A stretch of 64,000 bases of DNA from Candidatus Undinarchaeota archaeon. Its GTDB lineage: Archaea; Undinarchaeota; Undinarchaeia; Undinarchaeales; UBA543. Shown here one piece after another: positions 41,843 through 57,952 of the stretch. The number at the start of each line of letters is the position of its first letter. Position 1 is the stretch's first letter. Below the pieces are notes generated by a model, which searched no databases, had not been told where the DNA came from, and was given only the letters and a program-made list of their open reading frames with translations. Position numbers and translations under genes: made by a program. Where the stretch lies: positions 2,090 to 66,089 of the forward strand of contig CAZMMZ010000007.1 of NCBI GenBank assembly GCA_964567575.1, written 5' to 3'.

Positions 41843-42259
41843 ATGGATTGGGTTAAATTTGAACAAGAAATGTGGTCACTATCTGAACGAATAGATTTTG
41901 ATCCAGATGTAATTATCGGAATTTCAAGAGGTGGACTAGTTCCAGCTCTTTACCTTTCAAAACATTTGGGAGTTAACGAACTACACGGCATGTCTGTTAC
42001 AAAAGAAGGAAAGAAACGTCGTGTATTTACTGAAATAACTAAAAGTCTTAAACATAAACGAGTATTGTTGGTTGAAGATATGCTTGAAACGGGGGAGAGT
42101 TTGATTGTTGCAAAAAAACATTTGGAAGAAGATAAAGATGCAATTGTAAAAACTGCGTGTCTGTATACAATGCGTATTACTAAACCAAGTGTCCCAGATT
42201 ATTTTATTAAACAAGTCAAAAAAGTTGTTGACTTCCCTTGGGAAGATTGGAAAAAGTGA
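41843..42259 (+). CDS. Phosphoribosyltransferase (purine PRT-like)
   Basis: 138 aa. PRPP-binding loop VLLVEDMLETGESL. Confidence 0.75.
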   Translation: MDWVKFEQEMWSLSERIDFDPDVIIGISRGGLVPALYLSKHLGVNELHGMSVTKEGKKRRVFTEITKSLKHKRVLLVEDMLETGESLIVAKKHLEEDKDAIVKTACLYTMRITKPSVPDYFIKQVKKVVDFPWEDWKK

Positions 42260-42263
42260 TGAT

Positions 42264-42908
42264 TTATTTATTGCAAACTTCACTTAGTTTTTCGTAAGAT
42301 CTGTTTATACTATTCAAAGCATCTACTAAATGTGGCATGTACTTGAATCCTGGTGTTGCTCCGAAATCTGAATAAATCAAAATGTAATGAAGTTTAAGCA
42401 ATCTTTCTGTTTCTATTTCTTCAACAGCTTGTTCTAATGTTACTGGTGCTTTTATTTTCAGTCCGCCGCCTTCTAATCCTTTTGACAGGCGCGCTAAAAG
42501 ATCATGAGTTTCAGCTAGTTTTAGAATGTCATGTATTTCCTCTTCAGAATATCCCATTTTTTCAACATGCTTCTGTGCGAGTTCTGCTGATTTGAATCTG
42601 TGGTTCGTATCCAAAGCATCAATTCCTTTTCCTATATCATGATAAAGTGTACCGCATCTCAAGATTTCTTTATCGTGTTCATTCAAATCTCTTGTATCCA
42701 TAACTGCTCCTTTATCCTTTACTTCACCAAGCAGTCCCATAACATTAAAAGTGTGATCAAGCGGGTCTATATCTTCATGCGGTTCAGATTGTTTAATCCC
42801 TTTCATTACAAGCATTTCTTCAGGAAGATTCTCTTTAATCTTATCAAAATTATTTTTGAAAATTAATTCATTACCTTTCAAAAGTTCTCGTAATATTTTG
42901 TAATCCAT
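42264..42908 (-). CDS. HD-domain phosphohydrolase
   Basis: LYHDIGKG motif. I place the start at ATG 42908 (MDYKILREL). The track's longer ORF (to 42974) starts at an ATG inside hairpin 1 of repeat copy A. Confidence 0.7.
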   Translation of the reverse strand: MDYKILRELLKGNELIFKNNFDKIKENLPEEMLVMKGIKQSEPHEDIDPLDHTFNVMGLLGEVKDKGAVMDTRDLNEHDKEILRCGTLYHDIGKGIDALDTNHRFKSAELAQKHVEKMGYSEEEIHDILKLAETHDLLARLSKGLEGGGLKIKAPVTLEQAVEEIETERLLKLHYILIYSDFGATPGFKYMPHLVDALNSINRSYEKLSEVCNK

Positions 42909-42932
42909 TTTGAAATTAGTAGCCCCGAGCAG
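42909..42932 (-). repeat. Second copy of the tRNA-Gln 3' end (tRNA nt 61-73 plus trailer)
   Basis: 42915-42932 is an exact 18-nt copy of 43033-43050 (attagtagccccgagcag). Similarity extends to 24 nt with 2 mismatches. Confidence 0.9.
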
Positions 42933-43011
42933 TTCCGAACGTCCGCCTTGCCGCGGACAATGGCATGAGGGCATTCGCCTACGGGCGAAGCCCTGGTTTG
43001 AAATTGGTTCA
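42933..43011 (-). repeat. GC-rich two-hairpin element, copy A (downstream of tRNA-Gln)
   Basis: Minus strand: TGAACCAATTTCAAACC / AGGGC-TTCGCC-CGTA-GGCGAA-T-GCCCT / CATGCCATT / GTCCGC-GGCAAG-GCGGAC / GTTCGGAA. Confidence 0.85.
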
Positions 43012-43037
43012 GATCTGTCTAAGTTATTTGTGATTAG

Positions 43038-43110
43038 TAGCCCCGAGCAGATTCGAACTGCTGTCCCAAGCTCCAGGGGCTCGGATGATTGACCACTACA
43101 CCACGGGGCT
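43038..43110 (-). tRNA. tRNA-Gln (CUG), no encoded CCA, apparent C at position 33
   Basis: Hand-folded: AGCCCCG-TG-GTGT..-CGAGC CCCTGGA GCTTG-GGAC-AGCAG TTCGAAT CTGCT-CGGGGCT-A. The acceptor and D region match archaeal tRNA-Gln. Confidence 0.8.
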
Positions 43111-54412: not shown

Positions 54413-54489
54413 TGGCAGGCCCGCCGAGATTTGAACTCGGGACTGCGGCTCCGCAAGCCACCATGATATCCAAGCTACACCACGGGCCT
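54413..54489 (-). tRNA. tRNA-Arg (GCG), CCA encoded
   Basis: Hand-folded: AGGCCCG-TG-GTGT..-GTGGC TTGCGGA GCCGC-AGTC-CCGAG TTCAAAT CTCGG-CGGGCCT-G-CCA. Confidence 0.88.
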
Positions 54490-54534
54490 AATTTAGCTTT
54501 AGAATTCTAATTCTATGTCTTTATATTATTACCG

Positions 54535-55071
54535 TTATACTACCCTAAGCCAGTTTATGAAAAGGTATGGGAATTTGCTAAGTGCAAACCATGCGAGAGT
54601 CATGTAAAATGTTCCCATTATAATATACTTTATTGGATTTTCATGAAATGTGAAAAATCTGCTGATTTCCCTGAAAACTTCTGCTAATATAAATATGACA
54701 ATTCCCCAAACCAAGAAATTACTAAGTGTTAAAAAACTGGCAAAAATCGCTATAAAGATCATGTGAATCATATCCATCCCAACTAAAATCGGGTTGTAGA
54801 TTCCTATTTTTGCACTTAATATCTTTGATGGCCATGTTGATAATATTGCTACTAATATTGCTATCCACGGTCCATAAATTATTGCCAAGAATAATATCAA
54901 AATGCTGTGTACTTCAAGATTCACTGTGTGATATACTAAATTTGATCTGCTGAGAATACAAAGAACTATTGTCCAAATTAGCATCCTTGAAGCGCCTGGA
55001 AGAACAATTGGTGCGAGAACGAGAATTAAGACTAGCGACATCACTCCCATGAAATATTTTTTTATATCCAC
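54535..55071 (-). CDS. Multi-TM membrane protein (family member P3)
   Basis: 178 aa, 5-6 TM segments. VNLEVHS..IIYGP pattern. Confidence 0.55.
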   Translation of the reverse strand: MDIKKYFMGVMSLVLILVLAPIVLPGASRMLIWTIVLCILSRSNLVYHTVNLEVHSILILFLAIIYGPWIAILVAILSTWPSKILSAKIGIYNPILVGMDMIHMIFIAIFASFLTLSNFLVWGIVIFILAEVFREISRFFTFHENPIKYIIMGTFYMTLAWFALSKFPYLFINWLRVV

Positions 55072-55138
55072 ACTAATCCCCTCTCTTGTTTGCTATTACT
55101 ACATTTAGCCGTTTATTAATTTTTGTATTAAAGTAAAA

Positions 55139-55154
55139 AAGCACCACCGGAGAG
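55139..55154 (-). repeat. Second copy of the tRNA-Arg(CCU) 3' end (tRNA nt 61-73 plus trailer)
   Basis: A 16-nt exact copy of 55229-55244 (aagcaccaccggagag). The adjoining AT-rich 15-17 nt (55126-55140 vs 55214-55230) are also similar. Confidence 0.9.
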
Positions 55155-55214
55155 TTCCGAACGTCCGCCTGGCCGCGGACAATGGCCAAGGGCATTCGAC
55201 TTCGTCGAAGCCCT
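55155..55214 (-). repeat. GC-rich two-hairpin element, copy B (downstream of tRNA-Arg CCU)
   Basis: Minus strand: AGGGC-TTCGAC-GAA-GTCGAA-T-GCCCT / TGGCCATT / GTCCGC-GGCCAG-GCGGAC / GTTCGGAA. Confidence 0.85.
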
Positions 55215-55231
55215 ATTAAAAATGTAAGAAG

Positions 55232-55306
55232 CACCACCGGAGAGATTTGAACTCTCGACTTTTTCCTTAGGAGGGAAACGCCTTATCCAGACTAGGCTAC
55301 GGTGGT
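55232..55306 (-). tRNA. tRNA-Arg (CCU), no encoded CCA
   Basis: Hand-folded: ACCACCG-TA-GCCT AGTCTGGATA AGGC-G-TTTCC CTCCTAA GGAAA-AAGTC-GAGAG TTCAAAT CTCTC-CGGTGGT-G. Confidence 0.88.
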
Positions 55307-55316
55307 ATTTTGAAAT

Positions 55317-57059
55317 TTACATCCTGTCCGGGACTTCGATTCCAAGAAGATACAAGCATTTCTTTAATGTTTTAAATGTTGCGTTAACCAATCCCAACCG
55401 AGCGTCTCTTACTTCAGTGTCTTCAGCATCTAAAACAGGATTTGTGGTGTAAAATGAGCTAAACTTGTCTGCCAATGCGTAAGCATAATTAGCAATAATA
55501 TGTGGTTGATAAGTTTCTGCGGATTCTGCTATAACACTTGGAAGTTTTCCAATTTGTTTTATTAATCTCTGTTCATCTTTATTATTCAAATGTTTGAATT
55601 TAATACTAGCAAGTGCTGGTTTCTTTTTTGCTTTTTCCAAAATTCTTTTTGCCCTAACTGCAGCGTATTGAATGTAAGGTCCAGTTTCTCCTTCAAATTC
55701 CAATGCAGTATCCCAGTCAAAGAAAATTGTTTTATTATTTCCAACATTTAGCATACTAAATTTCATAGCTGCAATTGTTATTTTCATTGCAAGAGCTCTC
55801 TGTGTTTTTTGATCAAGTTCTGGATTTCTTTGAATAATTTCACCCATTGCTTTTTTTAGCATTTCATTTTTTAATTCTGAATAAAGAATTGCAGTTCCTT
55901 CACGCGAAGACATTTTTCCACCTTTCAAACTTACGAGAGCATAAGCCAAATGATAACATTTCTTTGCTTGTTTGAAGCCCATTAATTCAAGGGTTTTGAA
56001 TAATTGCTGAAAGTGAAGTCTTTGTTCAGATCCAACAACATAAACTGAGCGATTAATTTTGTATTTCTTAAATTTCTCTTCAGCTAGTGCAAGATCTTGT
56101 GTTGAATATAAAGTTGTTCCATCAGTTTTCAATAAGAGCCAAACCGGTAGCCCGTGCTTCTTTAGATCAACAATTAATGCTCCTTTACTTTTCTTTGCTA
56201 GTTTCTTTTTTCTAAGTTCTTCAGTTAATTCTCTTCCTCTATCAAGTAAATCACTTTCATAAAAATCAACATCAAAATTTGCACCAAGTTCTTTGTAAAT
56301 TTCTTTAAATTCATCAATACTCCATTTTCTAAATTGTTTCCAAAGATCAACAAGCTCTTTATCGTCTTGAGCTTCAAGGTGTTTCAGAATTTCAGTTACT
56401 TCTTCTTTTTTGTCAGGAGTTTCATTTAGTTTTTGTACAGCTTCTGTGTAAATGCTTCCTATCCAATTTGAAAGATTTCCTTTTGGTTTTTCTCCGTCAT
56501 GGAAATTCTTGTAAGCCCAAATTGTTTTTGCAACATGCATTCCTACATCATTAAATAGATTTGCCTGAACAACATCGTATCCTGCTTCTTTAATAATTCT
56601 TGACAAACTTTCTCCAAGTGTTGTGTTTCTCAAATGTCCAATATGAAAAGCCTTGAGTGGATTAGGTTGACTGTACTCAATCATTATCTTGTCTTTCTTT
56701 TTCTCACCTTTTCCAAATGAATCAGTATTCGCTTCAGTTACAACAGCTTTTGCGAATTCTCCGAATTTGAGGAAGAAATTAACATAAGCTCCTGCAAGTT
56801 TGATTAGAAAAACACTTCGCGGCCTTTTGATTTTTTCAATAATTTCTTCAGCAATTTTGCGAGGACTTACTTTTTTGATTTTGCCAAGTGGGAAAGAAAT
56901 ACTACAAGCCAAATCTCCCATTTTGTAACTTGGGGGTTCGTCAATATGATTTTTTAATTTTATTTTTCCTAGTGGAGTTTTTGCGATTCCTAATTTTGGT
57001 AGAACCTCAGCTATTGCTTTTGTTACATCTTCTTTTGCTTTAATCCATGGATCTTTCAT
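55317..57059 (-). CDS. argS: Arginyl-tRNA synthetase
   Basis: 580 aa. Class I HIGH region (NPLKAFHIGHLRN), KMSSREG, and a C-terminal DALR anticodon-binding domain. Confidence 0.93.
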   Translation of the reverse strand: MKDPWIKAKEDVTKAIAEVLPKLGIAKTPLGKIKLKNHIDEPPSYKMGDLACSISFPLGKIKKVSPRKIAEEIIEKIKRPRSVFLIKLAGAYVNFFLKFGEFAKAVVTEANTDSFGKGEKKKDKIMIEYSQPNPLKAFHIGHLRNTTLGESLSRIIKEAGYDVVQANLFNDVGMHVAKTIWAYKNFHDGEKPKGNLSNWIGSIYTEAVQKLNETPDKKEEVTEILKHLEAQDDKELVDLWKQFRKWSIDEFKEIYKELGANFDVDFYESDLLDRGRELTEELRKKKLAKKSKGALIVDLKKHGLPVWLLLKTDGTTLYSTQDLALAEEKFKKYKINRSVYVVGSEQRLHFQQLFKTLELMGFKQAKKCYHLAYALVSLKGGKMSSREGTAILYSELKNEMLKKAMGEIIQRNPELDQKTQRALAMKITIAAMKFSMLNVGNNKTIFFDWDTALEFEGETGPYIQYAAVRAKRILEKAKKKPALASIKFKHLNNKDEQRLIKQIGKLPSVIAESAETYQPHIIANYAYALADKFSSFYTTNPVLDAEDTEVRDARLGLVNATFKTLKKCLYLLGIEVPDRM

Positions 57060-57096
57060 TGTTCACCTGTATGTTTCTGCGGTTTTTAAATGTAAG

Positions 57097-57170
57097 TGGG
57101 CCCGCAGGGATTTGAACCCCAGTTTGGAGGTCCGAAGCCTCCCGTGATATCCAAGCTACACCACGGGCCC
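57097..57170 (-). tRNA. tRNA-Arg (UCG), no encoded CCA
   Basis: Hand-folded: GGGCCCG-TG-GTGT..-GGAGG CTTCGGA CCTCC-AAAC-TGGGG TTCAAAT CCCTG-CGGGCCC-A. Confidence 0.85.
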
Positions 57171-57212
57171 ATTTTAACCTTAAATGTAGGGTATTAGCTT
57201 ATTTAATAATAT

Positions 57213-57225
57213 TGTCATATGTCAC
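57213..57225. promoter_or_regulatory. TGTCATATGTCAC motif, site 3
   Basis: 43-55 nt upstream of the tRNA-Arg(UCG) 5' end, just past the alaX stop. Confidence 0.3.
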
Positions 57226-57228
57226 TTT

Positions 57229-57867
57229 TTAGTGGTCTAGCATAATTTCAATACGTTCTTTGCCTGCACCAATATTTTTCCTCTTAAGCCGGATTTTTCC
57301 AATTTCTCCGGTCCGCTTGACGTGTGTTCCCCCGCAAGGCATTTTCCATTCTCCTAATTCCCACCATCTTTTTCCAGGTTCTTCAGAATCTTCATAAACT
57401 TTTATTTCTAAATCTTGTGCAATTATTTCATCAACTTTTTTTTGTATTTCGTCAAAATAATTTACAACTGATTCTTCCATTTCATAATCAATTCGAGCTT
57501 TTTCTGGATGCATATTGGAACCAATTAGTTTTGACTGTCCACTAATGTCTTTGAAAATGTAATAAATAATATGCGCTGAACTGTGAAGACGCATTAATCT
57601 AAATCTGTTTTCCCAATCCAATTCTACTTTGACAGTGTCGTCTTCTTTAAAATCCGGCGCGCTTTCCAAAGTGTAAACAATATCATCTCCTGTTTTCAAA
57701 GCCTCAGTAATTTGGATTCCAGTAATAGTTCCTTTATCTGATGCCTGTCCACCAGAAAATGCAAACAAAACAGTCTTATCTAAAACAACATTGTTTCCAT
57801 CCAGTTTCTGAACCACAGCATCACATTCTTTCAAATATGGATCTTGCCAAAATAATTTTTCTGTCAT
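57229..57867 (-). CDS. alaX: Alanyl-tRNA editing protein AlaX (SAD-type)
   Basis: 212 aa. HSSAHIIYY (HxxxH) and CGGTHV (CxxxH) zinc motifs of the Ala/Thr-RS second additional domain. Confidence 0.85.
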   Translation of the reverse strand: MTEKLFWQDPYLKECDAVVQKLDGNNVVLDKTVLFAFSGGQASDKGTITGIQITEALKTGDDIVYTLESAPDFKEDDTVKVELDWENRFRLMRLHSSAHIIYYIFKDISGQSKLIGSNMHPEKARIDYEMEESVVNYFDEIQKKVDEIIAQDLEIKVYEDSEEPGKRWWELGEWKMPCGGTHVKRTGEIGKIRLKRKNIGAGKERIEIMLDH

Positions 57868-57874
57868 ATGAATA

Positions 57875-57952
57875 TGGTGGGCCTGAAGGGATTTGAACCC
57901 TTGATCTACAGCTTAGAAGGCTGTCGCCTTATCCAGACTAGGCTACAGGCCC
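57875..57952 (-). tRNA. tRNA-Arg (UCU), CCA encoded
   Basis: Hand-folded: GGGCCTG-TA-GCCT AGTCTGGATA AGGC-G-ACAGC CTTCTAA GCTGT-AGATC-AAGGG TTCAAAT CCCTT-CAGGCCC-A-CCA. Confidence 0.9.

Follow-up and report, generated by a model that had tools for sequence, protein, structure and literature searches.

In prokaryotes, insertions are found most often at transfer RNA genes. In the stretch of DNA analysed here (the window: 64 000 nucleotides, positions 2090–66089 of contig C7 of the source genome, G000), a tRNA-Gln(CTG) gene is followed by a short insert without an open reading frame and then by an exact second copy of its own 3' end, which stands just before the next gene. What is the sequence enclosed by the two copies, and by which route did it come to lie there?

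The source genome has a size of about 0.9 Mb; its assembly of 745 kb, in 18 contigs, is about 82 per cent complete. On the basis of the adjacent DtdA protein, its closest named relatives are the Candidatus Undinarchaeota MAGs binchicken_co48_198 (G001) and UBA543 (G002). Both are congeneric with the source genome and were used for comparison, together with a genome from another family of the same order, Undinarchaeales (G004). The metagenome runs containing the window locus are all of marine or vent origin. Judged from these sequences, the host organism is a marine DPANN archaeon of the Undinarchaeales.

The insert at tRNA-Gln(CTG) and its family

The order on the minus strand is the gene for DtdA (43982–43152; assigned by PF04414), tRNA-Gln(CTG), the insert and a gene for an HD-domain protein (PF01966), the ATG of which (42908–42906) is found 6 nt after the right repeat. 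The positions of the individual features are given in table 1. The insert (42933–43032, 100 nt) is bounded by two exact 18-nt direct repeats, CTGCTCGGGGCTACTAAT. An exact 18-mer repeat at a spacing of 118 nt would hardly ever arise by chance (about 4^-18 per position pair), and a repeat search stretches the similarity to 32 nt with 88 per cent identity (42909–42940 versus 43027–43058). The sequence AATTTCAAA is also present twice at the locus, at 43005–42997 and 42917–42909.

An earlier note on this locus had described the same layout, and all of its coordinates proved correct when the sequence was re-read, including the exact 18-nt repeat, the tail, the spacing to the ATG and the AATTTCAAA pair. 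It had divided the stretch after the tRNA into an AT-rich trailer of 26 nt and a 79-nt element. The trailer is not native to the tRNA: it is the 5' module of the insert, conserved in other copies and at the G002 locus, and for this reason the insert is taken to extend over the full 100 nt.

Table 1. Positions of the features at the two occupied tRNA sites of the window, in minus-strand order for each site.
Feature	Position	Strand	Basis and remarks
tRNA-Gln(CTG), target gene	43037..43110	-	ARAGORN; identical tRNA at the orthologous G002 locus
Left 18-nt repeat (tRNA nt 61–73 + 5 nt of trailer)	43033..43050	-	exact match to 42915–42932
5' module of the element (CACAAATAACTTAGACAGATCTGAACC), the earlier 'trailer'	43012..43032	-	alignment of copies; 5' region of the G002 insert at this tRNA is homologous; base-paired to the 3' tail when folded
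Hairpin 1 (GGGCTTCGCCCGTAGGCGAATGCCC)	42969..42993	-	alignment fold; compensatory pair changes across copies, 0/500 shuffles
Hairpin 2 (GTCCGCGGCAAGGCGGAC)	42941..42958	-	alignment fold and pair counts
T-loop-like 3' tail GTTCGGAA (part of GACGTTCGGAA)	42933..42940	-	common to tRNA-associated copies; closing helix with the 5' module
Right 18-nt repeat (duplicate of the tRNA 3' end)	42915..42932	-	exact sequence match
HD-domain gene, directly downstream	42264..42908	-	Pfam; without counterpart at this place in G002
tRNA-Arg(CCT), target gene of the second instance in the window	55231..55306	-	ARAGORN
Left 15-nt repeat CTCTCCGGTGGTGCT (tRNA-Arg nt 61–75)	55230..55244	-	sequence match
Second element copy (5' module 55213–55229, hairpin 1 55190–55213, tail GACGTTCGGAA 55155–55165)	55155..55229	-	
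Right copy of the 15-nt repeat	55140..55154	-	G002 ortholog: single copy, then directly native sequence (empty site)

The cloverleaf predicted by ARAGORN for tRNA-Gln(CTG) is normal, but with C33 in the anticodon loop, and even at E <= 1 the Rfam model for tRNA gave the gene no score. Because the same tRNA is present in G002, we take it as a genuine tRNA-Gln(CUG).

The surroundings of this tRNA differ between the congeneric genomes. In the source genome, the HD-domain gene and a PRTase-like ORF (41843–42259, plus strand) lie between the tRNA-Gln insertion and a YjeF-N/HD gene. Both are missing in G002, in which the YjeF-HD ortholog (61% amino acid identity) comes straight after an element of a second type (type B, see below). 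In G001 (loci L031/L012), tRNA-Gln(CTG) and 40 nt upstream of it are inverted relative to DtdA, about 720 nt away, and free of the element, so that sequence close to the target has been rearranged.

The insert is one member of a family of repeated sequences. A self-search of the source genome with BLAST and nhmmer revealed about 11 full copies in addition to partial ones. The covariance model of the element (type A), built from 11 copies, has 13 matches in the source genome, 6 in G001, 12 in G002, 21 in G004 and a single weak one in G003. The scan of metagenomes for the element led mainly to the same or related Undinarchaeota.

A bulged 10-bp hairpin and a second hairpin of 6 bp make up the core of the element. 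Of the 16 base pairs, eight have changed on both sides with pairing kept; none of 500 shuffles reaches the observed level, and slid controls remain far lower. About 7 complementary nucleotides join the conserved 5' module (..TGAACCAATTTC..) and the 3' tail in a closing helix, and one copy taken with its flanks folds compactly (z = -3.58). Conserved hairpins and a compact fold are expected of a structure recognised by a mobilizing protein; with such covarying hairpins, a functional RNA module, as considered in the earlier note, is also possible. The element contains no ORF and falls outside the curated Rfam RNA families, a scan of every copy having matched none even at E <= 1. A tRNA-derived (SINE-like) insert was considered and rejected, since the fold is made of two hairpins and a closing helix, with no cloverleaf.

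Pairwise identity of the cores is 70–85 per cent, which argues that the copies do not derive recently from one master copy. Nor do the tRNA-associated copies constitute a distinct core subfamily, as the pairwise core identities do not separate them.

The type-B subtype (approx. 170–230 nt) carries a GCAGT(A/G)CGCGCTGCACTCTGGAGCGCCA segment, is missed by the type-A model and is found at tRNA 3' sites just as type A is. It was found at C5:21167–21245 in the source genome, at the tRNA-Arg(CCT) site in G001 and at the tRNA-Gln(CTG) site in G002. A larger insertion of about 1.1 kb (C5:23630–24721; L078) is specific to the source genome when compared with G002. Besides an element copy with a flank repeat of about 35 nt (C5:23877), it includes palindromes, the start of a second, partial element and an ORF of 204 aa, the similarity of which to winged-helix proteins is weak (PF13601, E = 6.5e-4).

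Occupied and empty tRNA 3' ends

Three copies of the element in the source genome are located immediately 3' of tRNA genes, in the orientation of the tRNA: at tRNA-Gln(CTG), tRNA-Arg(CCT) and tRNA-Ser(CGA). Each is followed by an exact copy of the 3' end of its own tRNA, 17 nt long in the case of tRNA-Ser(CGA). The tRNA-Arg(CCT) gene, which bears the second instance in the window, is one of four tRNA-Arg genes within 3.5 kb (54413–57952, minus strand).

Similar sites are present in the other genomes. In G002, exact repeats of 16 nt and 15 nt accompany the insertions at tRNA-Gln(UUG) and tRNA-Leu(UAA), respectively. In G001, the repeat at tRNA-Leu(GAG) is degenerate and the copy after tRNA-Ala(GGC) is without one. 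The tRNA-Pro(UGG) gene of G004 is followed by a tandem: an element, an exact 16-nt copy of tRNA nt 61–76, a second element and a partial copy. The same layout is found after an intron-containing tRNA-Ser on a metagenome contig from another Undinarchaeota species (L105).

The left boundary of the repeat falls at the same place at all seven exact sites, namely nt 61 of the tRNA, with which the 3' strand of the T-stem begins (nt 60 at tRNA-Ser). The right end is the CCA end or a position 2–5 nt past the discriminator, for a total of 15–18 nt. The T-loop-like tail GACGTTCGGAA adjoins the right repeat and is found only in tRNA-associated copies. We considered whether this tail is copied from the T-loop of each target; this was rejected, the tails being identical at the Gln and Arg sites, the T-loops of which differ. 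The target tRNA is left intact by the insertion.

Positions at tRNA 3' ends are clearly overrepresented: 3 of the 11 copies in the source genome, versus about 1 per cent expected for random intergenic placement (P ~ 3e-4, a rough estimate). Across the genomes, the targets comprise six or more tRNA species, suggesting that the target is recognised by features shared among tRNAs and not by one att sequence.

Comparison of orthologous sites revealed both occupied and empty states. The tRNA-Arg(CCT) site is occupied in the source genome, with an exact 15-nt repeat, and empty in G002, where the tRNA end is directly followed by sequence matching that beyond the right repeat; in G001, it carries a different insert of about 190 nt, of type B. 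The tRNA-Ser(CGA) site, also occupied in the source genome, is empty in G002 and has another AT-rich insert in G001. Conversely, tRNA-Gln(UUG) and tRNA-Leu(UAA), occupied in G002, are both empty in the source genome, in which these two tRNAs are 8 nt apart. Among the intergenic copies, the one at C4:1613 of the source genome, just after a stop codon, corresponds to an empty site in G001. The element-bearing loci of G001 and G002 are non-orthologous to those of the source genome. The repeats are exact (18/18, 16/16 and 15/15) while the flanks of the source genome and G002 are about 77 per cent identical, so that the insertions are younger than the species split.

The tRNA-Gln(CTG) site itself has no empty ortholog in G001 or G002. 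As described above, the tRNA is rearranged in the former; in the latter, the type-B insert has the same 18-nt repeat span, with three mismatches, and a 5' module homologous to that of the insert in the source genome. This site may have been occupied for longer, or an exchange of cores may have taken place. In Logan contigs of four metagenome runs, which as contigs drop rare variants, no joints, excision circles or empty alleles of the window locus were found, and the spanning contigs carry the same allele.

The earlier note had treated the element and the duplication as coupled features. This holds for the tRNA sites, where empty orthologs are without the element and without the duplicate, but not for 6–8 non-tRNA copies of the source genome, for which an automated search detected no flanking repeats above the shuffled background. 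The repeats of the latter may have decayed if the insertions are old, or these copies may have arisen by another, tail-less route without duplication.

On the basis of these genome comparisons, we consider it likely that the family is a recently mobile, non-coding and non-autonomous element of marine Undinarchaeota, which targets the 3' ends of many tRNAs and generates a target duplication of 15–18 nt. Its copies lie just 3' of tRNA genes, in the direction of the tRNA, and at some intergenic positions behind protein genes. The non-tRNA copies without repeats, the lack of an empty ortholog at tRNA-Gln(CTG), the contigs without excision circles or empty alleles and the modest identity of the cores count against this view, as does the failure to find a mobilizing enzyme (see below).

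Possible routes of insertion

Pfam searches were conducted for genes that could mobilize the element. The source genome yielded no tyrosine integrase (PF00589), Y1/IS200 transposase (PF01797), reverse transcriptase (PF00078), Cas1 (PF01867) or serine recombinase/resolvase (PF00239), and the genomes G001, G002 and G004 yielded neither PF00589 nor PF01867. Exact-motif scans of viral contigs did not find the element. Because the element has no ORF and the searched families are missing, it is non-autonomous, with any mobilizer encoded outside these genomes, which are about 80 per cent complete. The absence of a mobilizer from the carrier genomes suggests machinery from a virus or from the host or partner; plausible sources are viruses, plasmids and the organism on which these DPANN symbionts depend. 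Dehalococcoidia and marine group II/III archaea are among the putative partners named in the Undinarchaeota genome paper (PMC7414124).

Beyond what is observed directly (the anatomy of the element, the repeats and their boundaries, the empty and occupied sites and the many tRNAs used), we tentatively propose staggered cutting by a trans-acting enzyme. This enzyme, encoded by a virus, a plasmid or a partner cell, would recognise the conserved T-arm and 3'-end (acceptor) region of any tRNA gene rather than a specific sequence. It would make two cuts about 15–18 nt apart, one at the junction of T-loop and T-stem and the other at or near the 3' end; the element would be joined to the cut target, and gap-filling repair would yield the direct repeat. 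Owing to the T-loop-like tail, each insertion would rebuild a T-loop-like sequence followed by a tRNA 3' end, which could again be targeted and would permit serial tandem insertion; the tandem at tRNA-Pro of G004 can be explained in this way. The variation of the repeat length between 15 and 18 nt counts against this mechanism, as one transposase with a fixed stagger does not usually give such a range. We prefer staggered cutting to the other routes considered, but in the full form given here, with an outside enzyme and repeated targeting, it is possible rather than probable.

Insertion could also be guided by homology, with no staggered cut: the T-loop-like tail would match the T-loop of the tRNA, the AT-rich 5' module would match what lies past the end of the tRNA, and the apparent duplication would be the target segment between these two anchors. 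The tail is indeed restricted to copies with repeats, every repeat starts just after the T-loop, and the tail-less non-tRNA copies are also without repeats. The 5' regions moreover resemble the downstream sequence (the AATTTCAAA pair at tRNA-Gln, and TCTTACATTTTTAATAG versus TTTTTACTTTAATAC at tRNA-Arg). This resemblance is, however, weak and AT-rich; the identity of the Gln and Arg tails, despite different T-loops, indicates that the tail is not copied from the target; and no dedicated recombination or replication machinery was identified. We regard homology-guided insertion as unlikely. Less likely than either staggered cutting or homology guidance are three further explanations. According to one of them, the inserts would be remnants of larger tRNA-integrating elements (of the tyrosine-integrase/att kind: SSV/pNOB8-like plasmids, or the ICE/CIME type) that were deleted down to an end of about 100 nt beside attR, the repeat being the att core. 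A repeat of a tRNA 3' end is the classic attL/attR footprint, and archaeal SSV/pNOB8-type proviruses as well as bacterial ICEs, CIMEs and IMEs share with the present family the insertion in tRNA genes, the direct repeat of the 3' part and the intact tRNA. The 1.1-kb insertion specific to the source genome, with its element copy and winged-helix ORF, and the block of HD and PRT genes missing in G002 could be understood in the same way. Unlike these integrative elements, the family is about 100 nt long and non-coding, starts its repeats at nt 61, has a tail mimicking the T-loop and uses many tRNA species. The repeats match their own targets and differ among the Gln, Arg and Ser sites of the source genome, the Gln-UUG and Leu-UAA sites of G002 and the Pro site of G004, so that the copies have no att core in common. 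Neither a tyrosine nor a serine recombinase was found in the source genome, and no tyrosine recombinase in G001, G002 and G004, all about 80 per cent complete; and such uniformity, copy number and tandem arrangement would be unexpected of remnants. An origin from integrative remnants is thus improbable.

Still less probable is mobilization by a casposase-like (Cas1-family) enzyme from elsewhere, in the manner of non-autonomous elements derived from casposons, the self-synthesizing transposons mobilized by Cas1. Family-2 casposons use 3'-distal tRNA-Leu targets in Methanosarcina and have target site duplications of 14 bp and up to 35 bp (PMC4779613). The repeats of 15–18 nt, the 35-nt flank repeat at C5:23877 and the targeting of tRNA 3' regions are all in line with this; the repeats of 15–18 nt likewise fit the earlier note's reading of a long, casposon-like target duplication of 14–15 bp. 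What does not agree is the absence of Cas1 from the genomes G000, G001, G002 and G004, and also that of PolB and of long, casposon-type terminal inverted repeats from an element of about 100 nt; casposon duplications, furthermore, carry a sequence motif, whereas the repeats described here are anchored at a structural position of the tRNA across many tRNAs. We give as little credence to an immobile and conserved RNA module that acts in cis, for example a structure serving the processing or regulation of transcripts downstream of tRNAs and in 5'-UTRs. As this module spread by recombination, the tRNA 3' end would have been duplicated locally in tandem. The covarying hairpins, the compact fold and the position of many copies 7–100 nt upstream of same-strand gene starts would suit such a module. 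It is largely refuted by the several tRNA sites that are empty in some and occupied in others of the congeneric genomes, and the non-orthologous placement across genomes and the exactness of the repeats at insertions also argue against it.

Relation to known short elements and wider occurrence

We found no description of the element in the Undinarchaeota genome paper (PMC7414124), the census of MITEs in DPANN (PMC11602168), the casposon paper (PMC4779613) or other literature found. The genomes of DPANN are rich in MITEs (PMC11602168), and the family resembles these prokaryotic, IS-derived non-autonomous elements in being small, non-coding, intergenic and multicopy (about 11–13 copies), with structured hairpins and, as the empty and occupied sites suggest, mobilization in trans. 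It differs from them in having complementary ends of only about 7 nt instead of terminal inverted repeats of at least 10–15 bp, duplications of 15–18 nt instead of 2–10 bp, and a strong preference for tRNA 3' ends. Among the readings put forward in the earlier note, that of a miniature non-autonomous element mobilized in trans is supported by the empty and occupied orthologs, the exact duplications and the non-orthologous copies, but neither of its two sub-labels finds support: 'integrative' or 'CIME-like' disagrees with the lack of an integrase and with duplications that match their own target, and a strict 'MITE' with the ends, which form the closing helix of about 7 nt and no inverted repeats of 10 bp or more.

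Like REP and BIME sequences, the copies are short intergenic repeats, often just after genes, with GC-rich hairpins maintained by compensatory changes. No REPs are known that duplicate their targets or are polymorphic at tRNA ends; the insertion polymorphism with exact duplications observed here sets the family apart from them.

Transfer RNA genes also serve as landmarks for TRE3 and TRE5 of Dictyostelium and Ty3 of yeast, eukaryotic retroelements that encode a reverse transcriptase, are targeted through Pol III factors and insert at a fixed distance from the tRNA gene. This is an analogy of working only, as the present element is archaeal and lies right at the tRNA 3' end, and no reverse transcriptase was found in the source genome. 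With a two-hairpin core in place of a tRNA-derived body, and no PF00078 match in the source genome as a source of reverse transcriptase, the family does not correspond to a SINE-like retroposon of Archaea or Bacteria either. A likeness to integron attC sites (structured single-stranded DNA hairpin, GTT-containing end, position after genes) was set aside, as the searches gave no integrase and duplication of the target is not a feature of integrons.

The element is thus best described as a non-autonomous mobile element targeting tRNA ends, possibly by a mechanism of a new type. If this is true, tiny non-coding elements spread in one lineage of ultra-small symbiotic archaea via the 3' ends of many tRNA genes, and the boundaries of the duplication are set by tRNA structure (nt 61) and not by one target sequence. 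The mobilizing enzyme, once found, would reveal a new kind of target choice at tRNA genes and show the uptake of mobile DNA by gene-poor DPANN genomes. Because congeneric MAGs provide sites that are empty in one and occupied in another, these predictions can be tested in population data.

Part of the element also occurs in other settings. Metagenome contigs unrelated to the source genome (L097/L099 and L103) contain an exact 22-nt hairpin motif, GGGCTTCGCGAAGCGAATGCCC, within other palindromic contexts, and contig L103 carries a CCAATTTGAAT motif in addition.
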